From: Candidatus Saccharimonadota bacterium
GTDB taxonomy: Bacteria; Patescibacteriota; Saccharimonadia; Saccharimonadales; Saccharimonadaceae
Assembly (NCBI GenBank): GCA_049296095.1
Contig: JBAQRV010000001.1
Location: forward strand, 150,001-182,000
Length of the DNA: 32,000 nt
Direction: 5' to 3'
The notes under the pieces are model-generated. The model was not told where the DNA came from, did no database searches, and saw nothing but the letters and a program-made list of their open reading frames with translations. Shown here one piece after another: positions 3,666-13,891 of the stretch. The stretch's first letter is position 1, and each line of letters begins with the position of its first letter. Position numbers and translations under genes: made by a program.

Positions 3666-4373
3666 TTGTTGAAGGATGCCCAAAGAGATATGCAAGCAGG
3701 AGATAGACTAAGTACCTTCATCACACCCTTTATGTTTGATGAGGGGAAAGAGGTTAGTATCGAAAAAATGACCGAAACACTTCGGTTCTTTCTCGAGATG
3801 TCTGTGGGTATATTACAAAAATATGCAGATGATGTTGATACAATCGAAGTGCTAGAAGAAAGTGGGTTTGTAACAGTATTAGAGCTTTCATTAAGAGTAA
3901 CCTCAAGCGATGGCTCCTATCTACATATATTGATATTTGGACATAAGCAAGGTACGGCTATCCTTGACTTAGGCATTTCTATTATCGAGCATGGCCCTAA
4001 GGGAGAGTACATCGGAGGATATCAATACGTAGCGGAAGGTATTGAAGTCCGCCGCTCAAGTACTCGCCTAGCCGATTCTGAAGAGGAGCAAGATGAAGAC
4101 TCTACAATGAGCCATTTTAGCGTTCTCGACCTATACGCTAGTCGGGATGAATTATTTGAACTTATGATGGCAGAGGATGAAGAAACGAAGCGCATTGGAT
4201 TGGAAACAAAAACTGCTATAGAGCAGGATGCCGAGCTTGATGCCTGGGAAGAAGAAATGGGATTTGATAATCAGCCAATTGCAAAGGATGAGCTTGAGAA
4301 AGTAGAAGCTATCTTAAGATCGGCAGAGCTATTTCCCTTGCCTCATCGCCAACTTGGGGGCGACACCGCTTAA
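3666..4373 (+). CDS. Hypothetical protein with strongly acidic C-terminal half (no recognised domain)
   Basis: 708-nt ORF in an otherwise non-coding gap between rpoC and rpsL. The ORF-track start is TTG at 3666; the first ATG is at 3690. An 86-aa stretch (nt 4071-4328) has 29 D/E versus 7 K/R by my count. AT-rich relative to flanking genes (spot count 21/60 G+C in line 3841). Confidence 0.6.
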   Translation: MLKDAQRDMQAGDRLSTFITPFMFDEGKEVSIEKMTETLRFFLEMSVGILQKYADDVDTIEVLEESGFVTVLELSLRVTSSDGSYLHILIFGHKQGTAILDLGISIIEHGPKGEYIGGYQYVAEGIEVRRSSTRLADSEEEQDEDSTMSHFSVLDLYASRDELFELMMAEDEETKRIGLETKTAIEQDAELDAWEEEMGFDNQPIAKDELEKVEAILRSAELFPLPHRQLGGDTA

Positions 4374-5547: not shown

Positions 5548-6225
5548 ATGATTCCTCGAATACCAGCAGAATTCCGTATACCGACCAATCAAACAATTGA
5601 TGATCTTATTGCTGGCGTAGATAGTGATATAAAAGAAGAGGGAAGCGTACGGTCATTCTTGGGTATAATTCGGTTCGACCGACAAAATAGTCAGGCGTTT
5701 TACCATAAGGTGCTTTATCCTTCTACATATTTTGCACTCACACTTGAACTAAGAGATAGTGATGAAAACTTACGAGACCGCCAGCATAGATTAGCGAATG
5801 CAGTACTATCAGGGATGATCTTTGGCCACATTATTAATGAGTCAACGTACCCAGGGGTTGGGCGTAGCCATTTTCCTTATGACAAGATTTGGGTTAATAA
5901 TAATCTGCTAGGAGCTTATAAGGAAAGCTTTGAATCGCATGATGGTATTAAAACGGTAGAGGGAAGGAGGGTCGGCTACTATGCCATGGCACGTACTGCA
6001 ATCCAGGATCTCTCAGATGAATCTTTTGCGAATTTAGAAAAGTGGTCGGAAGATCTCATCCCTGAAGCTGTCTATAGACCGAATTTTACACTAGGATTCG
6101 GGACGGCAATATATAGTGGATGGGATTATTATACTGACAGGTTACTAGCTGAAGGTCGGGGTGACGAATTTATGGTTGCACCCGCCGGATTACCCTCTCC
6201 AAACGATGACCCACTACAAGCCTAA
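5548..6225 (+). CDS. Hypothetical protein, 225 aa (no recognised domain)
   Basis: Clean ATG-initiated ORF between rpsG and fusA. AT-rich (spot count 21/60 G+C in line 5881). Flanked by the rpsG terminator and its own promoter-like signal. Confidence 0.65.
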   Translation: MIPRIPAEFRIPTNQTIDDLIAGVDSDIKEEGSVRSFLGIIRFDRQNSQAFYHKVLYPSTYFALTLELRDSDENLRDRQHRLANAVLSGMIFGHIINESTYPGVGRSHFPYDKIWVNNNLLGAYKESFESHDGIKTVEGRRVGYYAMARTAIQDLSDESFANLEKWSEDLIPEAVYRPNFTLGFGTAIYSGWDYYTDRLLAEGRGDEFMVAPAGLPSPNDDPLQA

Positions 6226-6300: not shown

Positions 6301-6351
6301 AAAGACAAATGGGAATAAACACAAACACGATGAAAGGCCTTGGTTACTAAT

Positions 6352-7134
6352 ATGACGATAGAGCGTGTGCGTCCCGATGACGTAACGCGCTCACGCCGCC
6401 TGCCACCACTTGAAGCCTGGAAGAAGCCGGATAAGTGGATTGATATCTCTAGCGGTCTAGCTAGGAGAGATGCACCTAGACTCGTGTTTGCTGCTGATGA
6501 TCGTGGTTTTGTTAGACCAGATCAAATTGTAGAGTCGATTACCGATACCTTATTCTGGAATGATTACGATTGGCCATTTGAGCCTGGCGATGTAGAGACA
6601 CGGCCTGACGAGCATCACTTTTACTACGAAAGAAAGAAGTACTTGGTCGACGCAAATCATGGAGATGAGATTCCGCATCAATTTCGCGAACTACCAACTT
6701 CAATAGGAAGAATGCCTCGACAATTACATAATGCAATTCACGATTTTTCACTTCCACCTGAAAAGCCAGATAATGAAGCAATGCGAGAATATGTCGGCTC
6801 GTATCAATTGGCGCATGAGGCGTTTAGAAAAATGTTCAAGAGAGCGAAGCGAGTATTGCATCATATAGATATGCCTTATGATATGGCGCCGTTTGACATA
6901 AATGAGAAAAGGATGGATCCGATTGATGAAGCCTTTATGCAAAGCTTCTTTTCAGAGCACTTTAAAACATACAGTGTTTCTATAGAATTATTCCGTGTTG
7001 CATCCCAGAACATTGACCTCGAACAGTATATCCTTGAAGCACATCGACAACGGATGATCGAGTTTGCTGAGCGTATTGGGGATTTTGCTAGTCAGAAATA
7101 TTTTAACTTCACCCCTCTTCTGCAAGCGGCATAA
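6352..7134 (+). CDS. Hypothetical protein with a D-E-H-H ... N ... H-N-A-I-H motif (possible His-Me finger / HNH-EndoVII-like fold; speculative)
   Basis: ORF is open from TTG 6340; the first ATG is at 6352. DEHH is at nt 6607-6618 and LHNAIH at nt 6724-6741, with ANHG between them. No other recognisable domain. Confidence 0.6.
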   Translation: MTIERVRPDDVTRSRRLPPLEAWKKPDKWIDISSGLARRDAPRLVFAADDRGFVRPDQIVESITDTLFWNDYDWPFEPGDVETRPDEHHFYYERKKYLVDANHGDEIPHQFRELPTSIGRMPRQLHNAIHDFSLPPEKPDNEAMREYVGSYQLAHEAFRKMFKRAKRVLHHIDMPYDMAPFDINEKRMDPIDEAFMQSFFSEHFKTYSVSIELFRVASQNIDLEQYILEAHRQRMIEFAERIGDFASQKYFNFTPLLQAA

Positions 7135-9377: not shown

Positions 9378-9396
9378 GGAATAAAGAATTGATTTG

Positions 9397-9402
9397 TAGA
9401 AT
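9397..9402 (+). promoter_or_regulatory. -10 box (TAGAAT) immediately upstream of the RadC-N ORF (leaderless layout)
   Basis: TAGAAT lies 7 nt upstream of ATG 9410. The -35 is weak (TTTGGA 9375-9380 with a 16-nt spacer). Confidence 0.4.
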
Positions 9403-9409
9403 GGGGGGT

Positions 9410-9679
9410 ATGGAGTTCGTACTATATCAGCGACCACGCGAAAAGCTACAGAGCAAGGGTGTTAAAGCGCTCTCTGTCGTCGAATTGCTCCAAGTTATCC
9501 TCGGGTCAGGTAGTCCTGATGCTTCAGGGGCAAAGATTGCGCGCTTGATTGAGAAGTTGATGATAGATAACGACGTCACGTATGAAACGCTGTTGTCGAT
9601 TCGAGGTGTCGGTAACGCAAAGACCTGTCAGATATTGGCCGCGTTTGAATTAAGTAAGAGAATGATGCCTCATGAATGA
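9410..9679 (+). CDS. RadC-family N-terminal (helix-hairpin-helix) region only; no JAB/MPN domain
   Basis: ..RPREKLQSKGVKALSVVELLQVILGSGS...IRGVGNAKTCQILAAFELSKR aligns block for block with the N-terminus of E. coli RadC/YicR as I recall it (PREK..G..AL...ELLA..L.TG......I.GIG.AK...L....EL.RR). The protein ends after ~90 aa without the HNHPSG JAB motif. Alternative starts: ATG 9401, TTG 9389. Confidence 0.75.
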   Translation: MEFVLYQRPREKLQSKGVKALSVVELLQVILGSGSPDASGAKIARLIEKLMIDNDVTYETLLSIRGVGNAKTCQILAAFELSKRMMPHE

Positions 9680-10112
9680 AGTTGTTGAGCTAAGGCGATG
9701 GCATCAACGTGCTCAGATTGATTACAAGTATCATTACATGGGCCTGTACGCAGCTTTTAACGCTTGGTATCGGCTGACGACAGGTGCCCATAATGATCGC
9801 GAGGCGCTGAATAAGCTGCGGATGGGGAATGTGACGTGGGAGCAATACTGTAGGGGTAGAACTATGCGCGAACTGGCACAGTACATGAATATGTTAGTCG
9901 AATGTACCCAACGAGAGCCGATTTCACACACGACACCACACTGGAACGGCGAGGTAGCACACACGAAAGATTGGCCCTCTGTCGTGGAGTACTGGTATAG
10001 GGTACGATGCCTTGTTATGCACGGTGCCGAGATACGTTCAGTCTATGTCTATCTTGCATACGAAACGCTTAACATTTTCATGACTGAAGTTATCACGCAA
10101 AAGCACTATTAA
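9672..10112 (+). CDS. Hypothetical 146-aa protein with an RxRCxxxHG motif (HEPN-like Rx4H; speculative)
   Basis: The ATG overlaps the RadC-N stop by 8 nt (ATGAATGA). YRVRCLVMHG at aa 109-118 (nt 9996-10025) resembles the HEPN signature R-R-N-x-x-x-H-G, with Cys replacing Asn, and sits in the last third of a small protein as in HEPN domains. Confidence 0.6.
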   Translation: MNEVVELRRWHQRAQIDYKYHYMGLYAAFNAWYRLTTGAHNDREALNKLRMGNVTWEQYCRGRTMRELAQYMNMLVECTQREPISHTTPHWNGEVAHTKDWPSVVEYWYRVRCLVMHGAEIRSVYVYLAYETLNIFMTEVITQKHY

Positions 10113-10211: not shown

Positions 10212-11393
10212 ATGGCAGATTTCGATCGAACCAAGCCACATGTTAACGTTGGAACTATGGGTCACGTTGACCACGGTAAAACAACGCTTACAGCAGCTAT
10301 CACAGCTGTGCTTGCAAAACGACTTCCTAGCGAAGTAAACAAGCCAATTGCTTATGACCAAATTGACAACGCCCCAGAAGAGCGTGCGCGTGGTATTACC
10401 ATTGCTACCTCTCACCAGGAATACGAGTCAGAAAAGCGTCACTACGCTCACGTTGACATGCCAGGACACGCTGACTATGTAAAAAACATGATCACCGGTG
10501 CTGCACAGATTGACGGCGCAATCCTCGTGGTTGCGGCAAACGACGGTCCTTTGCCACAAACTCGTGAGCACGTTCTGCTTGCTCACCAGGTTGGTGTGCC
10601 AAAGATCCTTGTTTTCCTAAACAAGATGGACCTTGCCGACCCAGAACTAGTTGAACTCGTTGAAATGGACATTCGTGAACTACTCGCAAAGAACGGGTAC
10701 GACGAAAACGCTCCTATCATCAAGGGTTCAGCAACCAAGGCTCTCGAAGGTGATCCTGCATCTGAGGATGCAATCATGGAACTGGTAAAGGCTCTTGATG
10801 AGTACGTTCCAGAACCAACTCGTGAGCTCGACAAGCCATTCTTGATGCCAGTTGAAGACGTCTTCTCAATTAAGGGACGTGGAACTGTTGCAACTGGACG
10901 TATTGAGCAAGGTATCGTAAAGATCAACGACGAAGTTGAAATTGTCGGTGTTCGCCCAACTCAGAAGTCTGTTGTGACTGGAATTGAAGCCTTCAAAAAG
11001 AACCTTAACCAAGGTCAAGCTGGTGACAACGCTGGACTCCTCCTTCGTGGAATTGAGCGTGAAGACATCGAACGTGGCCAGGTTATCGTCAAGCCAGGCT
11101 CATTGACTCCTCACACTGAATTTGAAGCTGAAGTCTACATCCTTAAGAAGGAAGAAGGTGGTCGCCACACTCCTTTCTCAAAGGGTTACAAGCCTCAGTT
11201 CTACTTCCGAACCACTGACGTGACAGGCGAAGTTGAACTTCCAGCTGACAAGGAACTGGTTATCCCTGGTGATACAGTAACTTTCATCGTGAAGCTTCTC
11301 GCTCCTATCGCCATGGAACAAGGTTTGAACTTTGCTATCCGTGAAGGTGGTAAGACTGTTGGTGCCGGTGTGGTTACCAAGGTTGTTAAATAA
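10212..11393 (+). CDS. tuf: Elongation factor Tu
   Basis: 393 aa with [18 protein letters not shown] and NKMD, and typical EF-Tu domains II and III. Confidence 0.99.
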
Positions 11394-11416
11394 TTAGATC
11401 TCTCTAATGAAAGAAT

Positions 11417-11446
11417 ATCCCCGGAGAAATCCGGGGTATTTTTTTG
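11417..11446 (+). terminator. Rho-independent terminator after tuf
   Basis: CCCCGGA (11419-11425), loop GAAA, TCCGGGG (11430-11436), then TATTTTTTT. Confidence 0.85.
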
Positions 11447-11452
11447 CTTGAA

Positions 11453-11490
11453 ATGCGAAAAACCCGCCAGATCCCGGAGGAACTAGCGGG
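11453..11490 (-). terminator. Minus-strand terminator of cassette A; copy 1 of a repeated 3' element
   Basis: Minus strand reads CCCGCTAG-TTCCTCCGGGA-TCTGGCGGG-TTTTTCGCAT. Shares the ..GTTCCTCCGG.A.CTGGCGG.GTTTT(T)CGCAT.. string with copy 2. Confidence 0.7.
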
Positions 11491-11499
11491 TAGTTCGCT

Positions 11500-12009
11500 T
11501 CAACGGGACTGACGGGCGAGTTGTCGCTCATTGCGACGCTTGGCACGAAAGTAGGCACGGTTGTTGGCTGCAAGACGACGCCGTATCCGACGTAGCTCTG
11601 CGGTCGGTACTTCAATGAAGTAGTACCTTGGACCACCGATACTGTGGCTGAAATCAAGGAACCGAAAGCTCCTAGCGAACCGCTCGAGTAGCTTCTCAGC
11701 GTTGTCGTGCGTTGTCAGGCAACGGATGTACGCGTCCGAATAGCCATCAACGCGCACCAAGTTCTCGTTTCGGAGAAAGGGGAGCGCCAGGATCCACAAG
11801 CCATCAATCTCGACTAGCCGAATGGTGACTTTTCGGTCGCCCTTGATCAGCGCGATTGGCAGCCTGAGGAGTGCCTTCCAGAGTTCCTTTCGCAAGGTCT
11901 TCAGGGTGAGCACTTGTGCCGCCTGAAATTCTTCTTCGGAGAGATTGGCGAGTTCTCGATTGCGCCAATGTTTGGGAGGCTCGAAGCCCTTATCCCATGG
12001 ACTTAGCAT
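11500..12009 (-). CDS. Hypothetical protein A, 169 aa, Arg-rich C-terminal tail
   Basis: ATG at 12009 is preceded by GAAGAAGG. Has its own promoter and terminator. C-terminus is ELRRIRRRLAANNRAYFRAKRRNERQLARQSR. No recognised domain. GC-richer than surroundings (spot counts 34/60, 32/60, 34/60). Confidence 0.65.
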   Translation of the reverse strand: MLSPWDKGFEPPKHWRNRELANLSEEEFQAAQVLTLKTLRKELWKALLRLPIALIKGDRKVTIRLVEIDGLWILALPFLRNENLVRVDGYSDAYIRCLTTHDNAEKLLERFARSFRFLDFSHSIGGPRYYFIEVPTAELRRIRRRLAANNRAYFRAKRRNERQLARQSR

Positions 12010-12066
12010 AGAACCTTCTTCGTGTCGGTGAATGTGCGTGTAACTACTAGGGATACAACTATCTAT

Positions 12067-12095
12067 ATTATACTACAATCGTTATGTAAAGTCAA
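12067..12095 (-). promoter_or_regulatory. Near-consensus sigma70 promoter for cassette A
   Basis: Minus strand: TTGACT (12095-12090), 17-nt spacer, TATAAT (12072-12067). Confidence 0.7.
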
Positions 12096-12113
12096 TGATT
12101 TGAGATGTCGGGA

Positions 12114-12178
12114 ATGCGAAAACCTCCGCCAGTTCCGGAGGAACTCGTGGGGGAATTCGCGTCGACGGATGGCGGAGG
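12114..12178 (-). terminator. Minus-strand terminator of cassette B; copy 2 of the repeated 3' element
   Basis: Minus strand: CCTCCGCC (pairing with GGCGGAGG), an internal GTTCC-TCC-GGAAC hairpin, then TTTTCGCAT. Confidence 0.6.
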
Positions 12179-12203
12179 TAGGGTTGACAGGTAGATCGGA
12201 TAG

Positions 12204-12533
12204 TTACTTGACTCGGAAGACCATACGCTCAGGTTCCCATACGAGCCTTGTCGTGGTAGTGTAGGGTTTCGTGTTCATCCAGCTGGGTGCCAGGACGAGC
12301 ATGGTGTACTCGCGTGCTTCGATGTAGGCGACGAGTTGAACGAGTTGCTTAGGTGACAGCCTGTCTAGGCCGCCGATGAGTTGCCACGGCGTGACATAGT
12401 CCATGCTGTGTCGTTTTCCGTCTCGCAGGGACTGTTCCATCGAGATCTCAAAGATCGAAATGGCAACCTGATCCTGTCCATCCAGGAGATCTAGACAACG
12501 TTCGGTTGTCGAGATGGGAACTACTTCAGTCAT
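12204..12533 (-). CDS. Hypothetical protein B, ~109 aa
   Basis: ORF is open to TTG 12548; the first ATG is at 12533 (MTEVVPIS...). No clear SD. Has its own promoter and terminator. No recognised domain. Confidence 0.55.
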   Translation of the reverse strand: MTEVVPISTTERCLDLLDGQDQVAISIFEISMEQSLRDGKRHSMDYVTPWQLIGGLDRLSPKQLVQLVAYIEAREYTMLVLAPSWMNTKPYTTTTRLVWEPERMVFRVK

Positions 12534-12580
12534 AATATATCCAATCAATGTTCGAGGCCTGAAACTCAGAGCTTGGGCGT

Positions 12581-12609
12581 ACTATATAAAACTTGACCGA
12601 CCCTGTCAA
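12581..12609 (-). promoter_or_regulatory. Near-consensus sigma70 promoter for cassette B
   Basis: Minus strand: TTGACA (12609-12604), 17-nt spacer, TATAGT (12586-12581). Confidence 0.7.
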
Positions 12610-12620
12610 TTGGTTTTGAG

Positions 12621-12674
12621 ATGCGAAAACCCCGCTGACCTGGATGGCCAATTGGGCCTTCGACGGGTGCGGGG
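12621..12674 (-). terminator. Minus-strand terminator of cassette C; copy 3 of the repeated 3' element
   Basis: Minus strand: CCCCGC directly after the stop codon, an internal GGCC..GGCC palindrome, GCGGGG, then TTTTCGCATCTC. Confidence 0.6.
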
Positions 12675-13031
12675 TTAGAGATGGAAGATGTAGCGAAATC
12701 GTACGTGGATCGTCTCGAACGCGTAGTACTCGATGCGAAGAACGGTTCCGAACGACGCAAAGTTCCTCCGAACATACTCCTCGATTGCTTCTCGGAGGTA
12801 CCGAGCGTCGAGTCTGTCGTCTCTTGTGTACAGGTACACCCGGGGTTGCTTGTTGTTCCCGACGACGTAGTCCTGTCGTGCGAGCCCGATCACCAAACCC
12901 AGTTCCGGGCCAATCGTGGCTTCGACATGAGCGATCGCGCGTTCGCGAAGATCTTGCTCGTAGTCACGCCATCTCTTCTTGTCGGCTCGCTCATGGGCTC
13001 GTCGATTGCGGAGAGTTTGACGTCTCTGCAT
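12675..13031 (-). CDS. Hypothetical protein C, ~118 aa, Arg-rich N-terminus
   Basis: ATG at 13031 is preceded by AAAGGAAG. The longer ORF to 13139 starts at TTG inside the promoter and is unlikely. N-terminus is MQRRQTLRNRRAHERADKKRWR. No recognised domain. Spot G+C 37/60 in line 12841. Confidence 0.6.
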   Translation of the reverse strand: MQRRQTLRNRRAHERADKKRWRDYEQDLRERAIAHVEATIGPELGLVIGLARQDYVVGNNKQPRVYLYTRDDRLDARYLREAIEEYVRRNFASFGTVLRIEYYAFETIHVRFRYIFHL

Positions 13032-13110
13032 TACTTCCTTTCGGTTAAGTATGCCTTTCACAATAGTTCCTTTCAATCGGTGATGTACTAATCGGTCAGG
13101 CTGGTTTCTA

Positions 13111-13139
13111 TTTATATCATGGGGTAGATAAGGATGCAA
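13111..13139 (-). promoter_or_regulatory. Sigma70-like promoter for cassette C, back to back with the rpsJ promoter
   Basis: Minus strand: TTGCAT (13139-13134), 17-nt spacer, TATAAA (13116-13111). Confidence 0.6.
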
Positions 13140-13140
13140 C

Positions 13141-13169
13141 TTGCCAGTTTTGTATTTGTTTGCTAAGAT
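13141..13169 (+). promoter_or_regulatory. Sigma70-like promoter for rpsJ
   Basis: TTGCCA (13141-13146), 17-nt spacer, TAAGAT (13164-13169). Leaves a ~95-nt leader before ATG 13271. Confidence 0.55.
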
Positions 13170-13270
13170 TAACCCCGTATTATATTAATCATTCCGACAA
13201 CTCGGCCAGACGCGAACACCACCGATTCGAGCAGAGGTTACGGGATACAACAAGAAAGGTTTCTTCCCTC

Positions 13271-13597
13271 ATGGCAGAAGCACCAAAAGAAGCAGGCCTC
13301 CGAATTCGGATTCGCCTCAAGGCCTATGACCACAAGGTCATCGACCAATCAGCAAAACAAATTATCGATACGGCTATTCGTACAGGCGCGAGCATTGCTG
13401 GCCCAGTACCTTTGCCAACTCGACGTAGTACATTTACAGTAGTCAAGTCGCCGCACGTCTACAAAAAGGGCGGTGAAACGTTTGAAATGCGTATTCACAA
13501 GCGCTTGATTGATATCACCAACGCCACCCCAAAGACGATCGACAGTCTACAGAACCTCAGCCTCCCAGCTGGTGTTGATGCAGAAATCCGTATGTAA
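13271..13597 (+). CDS. rpsJ: 30S ribosomal protein S10
   Basis: [35 protein letters not shown]...HKRLIDI. The upstream part of the listed ORF (13160-13270) is leader, not S10-like. Confidence 0.96.
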
Positions 13598-13654: not shown

Positions 13655-13891
13655 CTACTGAGCCAAGATTACCTGTGTGAGATTTGCAATGTCCATCTGT
13701 AGTTTCAAGATCCATAACTGAGAGATGATAATAAACACCATTAAGATAACCCAGTACGCAGTCTGCTTGGTGATACGTGTACTAAAGAAGGGAATGGTAT
13801 CTTTTTCAATACGAAACGAGCGCATTGGTGCCTGCGAAGCCTTGCGGGTTGTTTTGACGGTTCGCTTTGTTGATTTCTTTTTTGTTGCCAT
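13655..13891 (-). CDS. Small membrane protein, 78 aa (basic N-terminus plus one predicted TM helix)
   Basis: ATG is preceded by TAGGAG 8 nt upstream. MATKKKSTKRTVKTTRK... is followed by the hydrophobic AYWVILMVFIIISQLWIL. Convergent with rpsJ onto the shared terminator. Confidence 0.6.
   Translation of the reverse strand: MATKKKSTKRTVKTTRKASQAPMRSFRIEKDTIPFFSTRITKQTAYWVILMVFIIISQLWILKLQMDIANLTQVILAQ

Follow-up and report, generated by a model that had tools for sequence, protein, structure and literature searches.

We analysed a stretch of 32,000 nucleotides from a Candidatus Saccharimonadota bacterium (contig JBAQRV010000001.1, positions 150,001 to 182,000; the whole stretch is called the window below) and describe a hairpin element that is present in three copies in the spacer between tuf and rpsJ. 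The window covers a large operon of ribosomal-protein and translation-factor genes, rpoC ... rpsL-rpsG-fusA-tuf-rpsJ-rplC..., all on the plus strand. Its tuf-rpsJ spacer is 1877 bp long (tuf ends at 11393 and rpsJ starts at 13271) and holds three minus-strand open reading frames (ORFs), with one copy of the element at the 3' end of each. We hold with moderate confidence that the element is an intrinsic terminator and 3' stem-loop module which forms the conserved 3' boundary of promoter-gene-terminator cassettes at a recombination hotspot. From comparison of the sequences, it appears to mark a site of gene swapping rather than to be an ordinary terminator. The genes and junction elements are as follows.

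11448 to 11520, minus strand: junction element J1, at the 3' end of gene 1, abutting the tuf terminator.
11500 to 12009, minus strand: cassette gene 1, an ORF of 169 amino acids (aa), with its TGA stop (11500-11502) within J1.
12111 to 12183, minus strand: junction element J2, downstream of gene 2.
12204 to 12533, minus strand: cassette gene 2, an ORF of 109 aa, with homologues known solely in the same spacer of relatives.
12616 to 12677, minus strand: junction element J3, with its distal arm CCCCGC directly after the TAA of gene 3.
12675 to 13031, minus strand: cassette gene 3, an ORF of 118 aa, with its TAA stop at 12675-12677.

The three junctions carry homologous elements

An initial annotation of this DNA had described homologous sequence at the 3' ends of the three minus-strand genes, and all of its strings were found (copy 1, 11449-11490; copy 2, 12111-12153; copy 3, 12617-12640). 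The adjoining segment with the -35 box, said to be shared by copies 2 and 3, was present in both (GTCAATGATTTGAGATG and GTCAATTGGTTTTGAGATG). So was the 9-nt extra TCGGGAATG of copy 2, which we read as a second, partial copy of the tail (CAUCUCAAAUC). The proposed order of the repeated unit, a hairpin and then a promoter, holds for copies 2 and 3, but its extent had to be revised. The element is larger than had been noted, much larger in copy 3, and extends to about 11520, 12183 and 12677, taking in a second C-rich arm on the distal side and the gene's final codons or its stop codon.

The motif ATGCGAAAAMC occurs in the window only at 11453, 12114 and 12621. For the homology check we left the window aside and built an nhmmer profile from 30 copies found in other genomes. 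Within the window this profile matched exactly three sites, each of them on the minus strand (11448-11514, E = 2.7e-10; 12112-12183, E = 1.9e-9; 12616-12691, E = 2.1e-6), and the next match had E > 1. Therefore similarity confined to a generic stem and T-run is excluded, and the 3' ends are homologous. A covariance model built from 13 copies and searched over 762 kb (model R1) recovered J1 with 65.3 bits (E = 6e-14) and J2 with E = 2.6e-7, while J3 reached only E = 0.21 because its apical loop differs. Compared with shuffles, the folds had z = -5.2 (J1, -34.1 kcal/mol), -3.4 (J2) and -3.2 (J3). The other terminators within the window differ in sequence from the element.

J1 consists of the distal arm CUCGCCCGUCAG, a long hairpin with a UCCG tetraloop, the 3' arm CUGGCGGG and the tail UUUUUCGCAUUUCAA. 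J2 has the distal arm CCUCCGCCA, paired with UGGCGGAGG as its 3' arm, and the tail UUUUCGCAUU; it is closest to L057b (91%), L054b and the copy at L134 (L numbers denote loci of relatives). J3 has the inner hairpin GGCC-CAAUU-GGCC, the 3' arm GCGGGG and the tail UUUUCGCAUCUCAA, and is 86-90% identical to L057c, which occupies the same array position.

Anatomy of the element family

The element is described here on the gene strand, from the alignment of copies. It is about 62-73 nt long, with a hairpin closed by GGCGGGG and the tail TTTTCGCAT. It starts at or just past the stop codon, which is TAA in 17 of 26 cassettes. The distance from the stop codon to the distal arm (A)CCCCGCC was 0-7 nt in 16 of the 26 element-adjacent ORFs measured. 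Six of these 26 ORFs read through the distal arm and stop within the element, mostly at the TGA in GU-UGA-AG. The distal arm is followed by a short linker, GUCGA(N)GCGAA or GUCGAAGA, and then by the proximal arm CCC(Y)CCGC. The apical stem is mostly capped by C(UCCG)G, sometimes by GCAA or other loops; the invariant 3' arm GGCGG(G/A)G and then the tail UUU(U)CGCAU(U) come after it. An A-rich segment upstream pairs with the tail, with 21 consecutive base pairs as a result in L107b. At internal junctions elsewhere 1-7 nt lie between CGCAT (CCAT in L006) and the next TTGAC -35 box; the gaps in the window are 10 and 16 nt.

Each element contains three copies of one motif of 7-8 nt, two direct (CCCCGCC) and one inverted (GGCGGGG). 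The 3' arm has two possible partners, the distal and the proximal 5' arm, and the sequence of each follows that of the 3' arm (CCUCCGCC with GGCGGAGG; ACCCGCC with GGCGGGU). AAC...GTT flanks the distal helix in many copies. The predicted fold energy was -22 to -49 kcal/mol in all 33 copies. T3-5 directly follows the stem in about 24 of the 33, and about nine have a weak U-tract (CCUUCGC or UCUUCGC). The position of the stem-loop, with a stop codon 0-20 nt upstream, matches the layout of an intrinsic (Rho-independent) terminator.

Two other roles for parts of the element were rejected. The T-rich tail does not serve solely as an UP element of the next promoter, as the tail is also retained in terminal copies adjacent to tuf, which no promoter follows. 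A small plus-strand ORF from the conserved ATG of AATGCGAA has no Shine-Dalgarno sequence and is shifted in frame by indels (J1 versus L014); the length and sequence of its peptide vary between copies.

Evidence for an RNA stem on the gene strand

A plain MAFFT alignment was unsuitable for RNAalifold, as indels break the register of the stem. We used a loop-anchored count and the covariance-model alignment instead. In the R1 alignment 86% of cells were paired (77% in shuffles), and both sides had changed in 10 of the 13 pairs. The covariation score was 0.315, compared with 0.174 in shuffles (0 of 500 reached it) and 0.05-0.07 with the partners slid. The loop-anchored covariation count, which does not depend on the model, agrees. 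On the gene strand there were 60 G-U/U-G pairs and 13 A-C/C-A mismatches (p = 2e-8). This excess is as expected for an RNA helix on the cassette transcript and, with the covariation of the stem, points to an RNA on the gene strand.

Another explanation is that the element itself works as an RNA. It could be a stable small RNA derived from the 3' untranslated region (UTR), or a conformational switch using the two alternative 5' arms, for example one in which a ribosome halted at the nearby stop codon tunes termination. The G-U excess of an RNA-strand helix, the two 5' arms that track one 3' arm and the stop codon so close to the distal arm (see above) all suit such a role. Further, at L010 a consensus promoter stands directly before an element, with no gene between them, and this unit predicts a transcript of approximately 70 nt. 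However, L010 resembles L012 with its coding part deleted. As the two alternative helices lead into one and the same U-tract, termination would follow from either, which leaves no obvious on/off logic. A search of Rfam 15 over 11300-13400 gave no family (best 14-22 bits, against gathering scores of 39-114). Therefore we consider a dedicated functional RNA improbable.

Confident copies of the element lie in one spacer and one orientation

We sampled loci with an identical S10 protein and 80 further metagenome loci. Across 66 non-redundant loci the tuf-rpsJ spacer varied from 167 to 5702 bp. Sixteen spacers were empty, 20 had the element and 30 had other inserts; many of these 30 contain between one and three short antisense ORFs, together with relatives of the element that have diverged further. 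Iterated nhmmer identified at least 34 non-redundant copies in 24 Saccharimonadales loci, and R1 added weaker copies. Every confident copy lay within the tuf-rpsJ spacer, antisense to the operon (approximately 685 kb searched with nhmmer, 762 kb with R1), and all strong matches of R1 (E < 1e-3) were in the spacer, on that same strand. The stem-plus-tail motif was found 36 times in 75 kb of spacers and 14 times in 610 kb outside them, which makes it approximately 21-fold denser in spacers.

In 596 Gb of genomes a narrow pattern was detected in three Saccharibacteria contigs of 0.3-0.9 Mb, in each of them only at the locus upstream of rpsJ. The other 16 matches were chance matches or unrelated terminators. 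Viral contigs gave no match to the narrow pattern and, with the broad pattern, only unrelated GC-rich terminators. Phage and plasmid collections and IMG/VR gave no match.

The initial annotation had suggested, as one possibility, a small repeated element, similar to a miniature inverted-repeat transposable element (MITE) or a repetitive extragenic palindrome (REP), and had pointed to a house terminator style, with the motif at most terminators of the genome, as the alternative. Neither is supported, because the copies are confined to one spacer. No confident copy was found outside it in the 685 kb or 762 kb searched, the long contigs have the narrow pattern at one locus each, and in the 32 kb of the window the motif stands at only the three junctions. 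GC-rich stems with UNCG loops followed by TTTCGCATT do occur as ordinary terminators in unrelated bacteria and phages (chance matches L023, L035 and L039). Still, given the single orientation and the density in spacers, we give very little credence to a dispersed repeat or a usual terminator style that appears three times here by chance. An uptake sequence, of the kind of DNA uptake sequences (DUS) or uptake signal sequences (USS), was rejected as well, as the element is not dispersed.

A partial element, made of the apical hairpin and AATGCGAAGACCCCGC, was seen directly upstream of the rpsJ promoter at L028 6620-6666 and L063 762-808 ('Candidatus Saccharibacteria bacterium 47-87'). It trails a same-strand gene ending in ...GGGYYY* and would terminate that gene, in the opposite orientation.

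Organization of the cassettes

A typical cassette has a TTGACA/TATAAT-like promoter, an ORF of 77-169 aa and the element. Of 25 listed loci with the element, 13 had a TTGACx -35/-10 pair ahead of the first cassette. With a promoter, one ORF and a terminator-like element placed between conserved operon genes, the cassette has the make-up of a moron-like unit. The regulatory features of the spacer in the window are as follows.

11419 to 11436, both strands: bidirectional tuf terminator, CCCCGGAGAAAUCCGGGG between runs of A and T; the fixed boundary of the array on the tuf side.
12067 to 12095, minus strand: promoter of gene 1, TTGACT, 17-nt spacer, TATAAT; 11 of 12 sigma-70-like consensus positions, 16 nt past the J2 tail.
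12096 to 12110, minus strand: linker from the J2 tail to the promoter of gene 1, holding the second partial tail copy CAUCUCAAAUC (compare CGCAUCUCAAAACC of J3).
12581 to 12609, minus strand: promoter of gene 2, TTGACA, 17-nt spacer, TATAGT; 11 of 12 consensus positions, 10 nt past the J3 tail.
13048 to 13076, minus strand: alternative candidate for the promoter of gene 3, TTGAAA, 17-nt spacer, CATACT; 9 of 12 consensus positions.
13111 to 13139, minus strand: putative promoter of gene 3, TTGCAT, 17-nt spacer, TATAAA; proposed from its position, and matching the first-cassette promoter of relatives.
13141 to 13169, plus strand: rpsJ promoter, TTGCCA, 17-nt spacer, TAAGAT; the fixed boundary of the array on the rpsJ side (consensus scan and comparison of relatives).

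The tuf terminator is unrelated in sequence to the junction element and is kept in all relatives. The first promoter of relatives lies 123-171 nt upstream of rpsJ. At 13131-13146 the -35 boxes of the first cassette and of rpsJ stand back to back (ATGCAA-C-TTGCCA in the window). The same arrangement was seen upstream of rpsJ in L010, L012, L054, L058, L062, L065 and L066 (TGTCAA|TTTACA), and in empty spacers such as L122 and L094 one TTGTCAA serves as a -35 box in either direction. No tRNA or tmRNA that could be an integration site was found in the 32-kb window.

The three window proteins gave nothing above threshold against Pfam, PHROG, PADLOC and NCBIfam, and no Pfam family was matched by 23 cassette proteins (three of the window and 20 of relatives). 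Gene 1 had no homologue in 5.8e9 proteins, and neither gene 1 nor gene 3 had one in searches that included exhaustive HMMER over 1.84e9 representatives. Homologue searches with gene 2 gave one close relative; its protein is 74% identical to P0003/L134 and 52% identical to L054. The ratio of nonsynonymous to synonymous substitution rates (dN/dS) was 0.10-0.29 for the five homologous cassette-gene pairs tested. These values reflect purifying selection, and therefore gene 2 is a real coding gene. The predicted local distance difference test (pLDDT) scores of AlphaFold2 models were 54 for gene 1 and 58 for gene 2, too low for a meaningful fold comparison. The mean GC content of cassette ORFs was 53.7%, compared with 47.0% in the flanks, and it was higher in 26 of 27 cases (55% versus 48% for gene 1). 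The cassette genes look foreign in origin.

We also observed that a 157-aa ORF on the operon strand of L066 (5468-5941, plus) shares 32% identity over 79 aa with a 166-aa antisense ORF of L082 (6435-6935, minus); these coordinates were derived from spacer offsets. Therefore one or more of the gene families inserted in the tuf-rpsJ spacer are found on either strand.

Cassettes are reshuffled among relatives

The cassette of gene 2 is the sole cassette in L134, the first, rpsJ-proximal one in L054 and the middle one in the window. Its homology runs from AATTGACA (the -35 box) through the promoter, 5'UTR, gene and element to TTCGCATT; in the alignment, the cassettes of L054 and L134 have a homologous promoter and 5'UTR. 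Gene 2 and its CCUCCGCC/GGCGGAGG element subtype travel together in all three loci. At L057 the elements similar to J3 and J2 stand at the same array positions as in the window, yet the genes preceding them are unrelated. The gene lengths at matching positions of the window and L057 are 118 and 93, 109 and 158, and 169 and 98 aa, and no residual DNA similarity was found between these genes, even at word size 7. Therefore genes and boundary elements reassort. The duplicated tail in the J2 linker is best read as an imprecise recombination joint and not as a precise site-specific one. In summary, the recurrence of the gene 2 cassette and the L057 subtypes behind unrelated genes support the earlier proposal that the cassettes were assembled by recombination at a common junction.

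The arrays might also have arisen by vertical descent, as tandem paralogues of one ancestral gene-plus-terminator unit whose proteins diverged past recognition, by fast or diversifying evolution, while the terminator was kept, with no transfer. The arrays of the window and of L057 would then be expected to agree in the subtypes and order of their elements, as they do. Expected, too, would be a weak likeness of protein motifs (xLxWxP...FxV at the C-terminus; best hhalign match 15 columns) and the diverged two-gene cassette that is common to L065 and L066 (29-37% protein identity). However, comparisons of profiles among cassette proteins were not significant (hhalign probability 10%; hmmsearch E 0.015-0.11 among only 258 ORFs), and neither the unequal gene lengths nor the lack of residual DNA similarity to L057 fits common descent. 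Where homologues exist, dN/dS of 0.1-0.3 argues against runaway divergence. The GC content of cassettes is consistently above that of the flanks, and the 16 empty spacers are scattered among relatives. Descent from one ancestral unit is therefore a poor candidate in our assessment.

A proposed boundary element at a recombination hotspot

According to the explanation that we favour, a strong sigma-70 promoter, a small orphan gene and the hairpin form a self-contained cassette. Such cassettes stand head to tail, on the strand opposite to the ribosomal operon. The cassette mRNA is predicted to carry a GC-rich hairpin of 13-21 bp, usually capped by C(UCCG)G and followed by UUUUCGCAU. This hairpin would halt transcription at the U-tract, ahead of the next cassette and of tuf, and it would shield the 3' end of the mRNA. 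The element may act in addition as a patch of homology for the gain, loss and swap of cassettes, because it is the sole sequence common to unrelated cassettes and the spacer is flanked by two extremely conserved genes. These flanking core genes would likewise supply homology for gain, loss and replacement. The likely route would be homologous recombination, or homology-facilitated illegitimate recombination, of incoming DNA.

Several observations weigh against this explanation. The U-tract is poor in several copies (GGGGCCUUCGCAU in L007 and L011; GGGGUCUUCGCAU in L009), and a simple terminator scan of the window did not flag the elements. The TTCGCAT tail lies past the expected 3' end of the RNA, yet it is conserved even without a pairing partner upstream, which is a hint of a role at the level of DNA. 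A plain terminator would have no need of the distal copy of the 5' arm, which is nevertheless conserved, also in copies whose proximal arm already gives a perfect hairpin. The G-U count comes from an alignment that had been fitted to the model and contains related rows, and the folding energies of the whole element are equal on both strands. Finally, 60-80 nt at roughly 80-90% identity is short for efficient homologous recombination.

Some of these points would be accounted for if the hairpin were a dedicated, folded recombination site, similar to attC or to the hairpin end of an HUH/IS200-type element, with the recombinase encoded elsewhere. The array would then be integron-like, or similar to a cluster of attC sites lacking integron-integrases (CALIN), and the platform would possibly be fed by single-stranded DNA from natural transformation. 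Tandem cassettes with small orphan genes, all facing the same way and each closed by an imperfect palindrome (60-80 nt) overlapping the stop codon, have this appearance. The two direct motifs and one inverted motif in each element, the AAC...GTT around the distal helix in many copies and the TTCGCAT tail conserved past the expected end of the RNA point in the same direction, as do the strict confinement to one locus and the gain of cassettes on either side of a shared one.

On the other hand, canonical attC cores, RYYYAAC...GTTRRRY, were found in 0 of 66 strand-copies (regular expression, 33 copies, both strands), and the bases outside AAC...GTT (CYCT, TTCG) are not complementary. The tested unknown ORFs of the 32-kb window showed no recombinase domain. 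An attC site travels with its gene, whereas here the same element subtype stands behind unrelated genes. The joint at J2 is imprecise, with its tail duplicated, and L010, with promoter and element but no gene, is not what excision of a cassette would leave. Integron cassettes differ from most of the cassettes here, which carry a consensus promoter of their own, and the G-U excess is on the coding strand. We regard a dedicated recombination site as unlikely, and we keep it in consideration because the distal arm, the TTCGCAT tail and the restriction to one locus exceed what a plain terminator needs. An equally doubtful proposal is that the tuf-rpsJ spacer of Saccharimonadales is a dedicated cassette-capture platform, in which the element, with its two direct arms, one inverted arm and TTCGCAT core, would be the folded site of a putative recombinase. 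If true, the platform would be a functional analogue of the integron with different sites and cassette-borne promoters, supplying orphan genes to genomes poor in mobile elements.

Bacteria of the candidate phyla radiation (CPR) have tiny genomes with few recognisable mobile elements, and their gene acquisition is poorly understood. Here, small genes which belong to no known family and are under purifying selection come and go in a spacer of the cell's most conserved operon, and the only feature that they share is the family-specific boundary hairpin. If the element is only a terminator, it would offer a cheap sequence tag with which hundreds of such cassettes could be harvested from metagenomes, as well as a ready insulated expression slot for genetically tractable Saccharibacteria. 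If it is a recombination site, it would represent a new cassette-capture system outside the integron family.

Other features of the operon

The 5' leader of rpsJ (13186-13255, plus strand; GACAACTCGGCCAGACG...CGATTCGAGCAGAGGTTACGG) was conserved in all relatives examined (L005-L133 equivalents). RNAalifold on 21 diverse loci gave an outer helix with compensatory changes (four adjacent pairs, both partners changed in 3-8 sequences); GAGAACTCGG and AGAGGTTAC were nearly invariant. The leader matched no Rfam family at E <= 5. It may be an undescribed ribosomal-protein leader of the S10 operon.

The fusA-tuf spacer (9389-10112, plus strand) is variable among relatives. In the window it contains an ORF of 96 aa (9389-9679), which has only the N-terminal UPF0758_N part of a RadC-like protein, and then an overlapping ORF of 146 aa without a family. 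The RadC-like protein of relatives is 213-217 aa long and has the RadC domain. The rpsJ-rplC spacer carries an antisense ORF of 78 aa (13655-13891, minus strand) with a hydrophobic C-terminal half. A counterpart of 79-102 aa was present in 10 of the 10 relatives compared, so this ORF is positionally conserved, unlike the cassettes.

Three plus-strand ORFs, located after rpoC and between rpsG and fusA, had no Pfam match (3666-4373, 5548-6225 and 6340-7134; 235, 225 and 264 aa); relatives have ORFs of similar size at the rpoC and rpsG-fusA spacer positions. A plus-strand pilin-like gene (N_methyl and He_PIG) was found in the tuf-rpsJ spacer or just after rpsJ at L005 4892-5869 and L009 6427-7098.

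Comparison with known systems

A search of the literature on integrons, attC, hotspots and hypervariable regions in Saccharibacteria and Patescibacteria returned nothing relevant. To judge by its sequence features, the cassette array with its conserved hairpin boundary resembles both integron arrays and phage morons, and it has no described match in the literature, Rfam or the phage and plasmid collections.

Similarly to attC arrays of integrons, above all sedentary chromosomal integrons with near-identical repeats (the Vibrio cholerae repeats) and CALINs, the array consists of small tandem genes in one orientation, mostly of unknown function. In both, every gene is closed by an imperfect palindrome of about 60-130 nt, which starts at the stop codon or overlaps it, conservation is higher in the repeats than in the genes, the content differs between close relatives and the composition of the cassettes is unlike that of the host core. 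The array differs in that it has no RYYYAAC/GTTRRRY cores and that no integrase or attI was seen in the 32-kb window. Arrays are short, at 1-3 elements, most cassettes bring a consensus promoter of their own, and at least one joint is imprecise. Elements and genes reassort, and the G-U pairs on the coding strand are of the RNA type.

Like a phage moron, each unit combines a small gene of unknown function with a sigma-70 promoter and a hairpin terminator of its own, and it is inserted between two conserved genes of a packed operon with a base composition unlike the surroundings. In contrast to morons, the units lie in one fixed spacer of a bacterial chromosome, as is evident from the flanks (rpoC-rpsL-rpsG-fusA-tuf and rpsJ-rplC...), with no phage or plasmid match. 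Further, they are arranged in tandem and have a homologous terminator that is common across species; phage morons are not known to have a family-specific terminator in common.

REP sequences and bacterial interspersed mosaic elements (BIME), as well as the inverted pairs of Neisseria DUS and Haemophilus USS, are also conserved hairpin stems at the 3' ends of genes, with possible roles as both RNA and DNA. However, these are dispersed in hundreds to thousands per genome, while the element described here is confined to one spacer.

In bacterial pangenomes, integration hotspots flanked by core genes are turned over by homologous recombination in the flanks. The tuf-rpsJ spacer is similar to them, as one interval holds very different accessory content in relatives, empty states included. 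It differs in the tiny size of its units (0.4-0.7 kb), which come without integrase or mobile-element genes and share an internal boundary that may serve as an anchor of homology.

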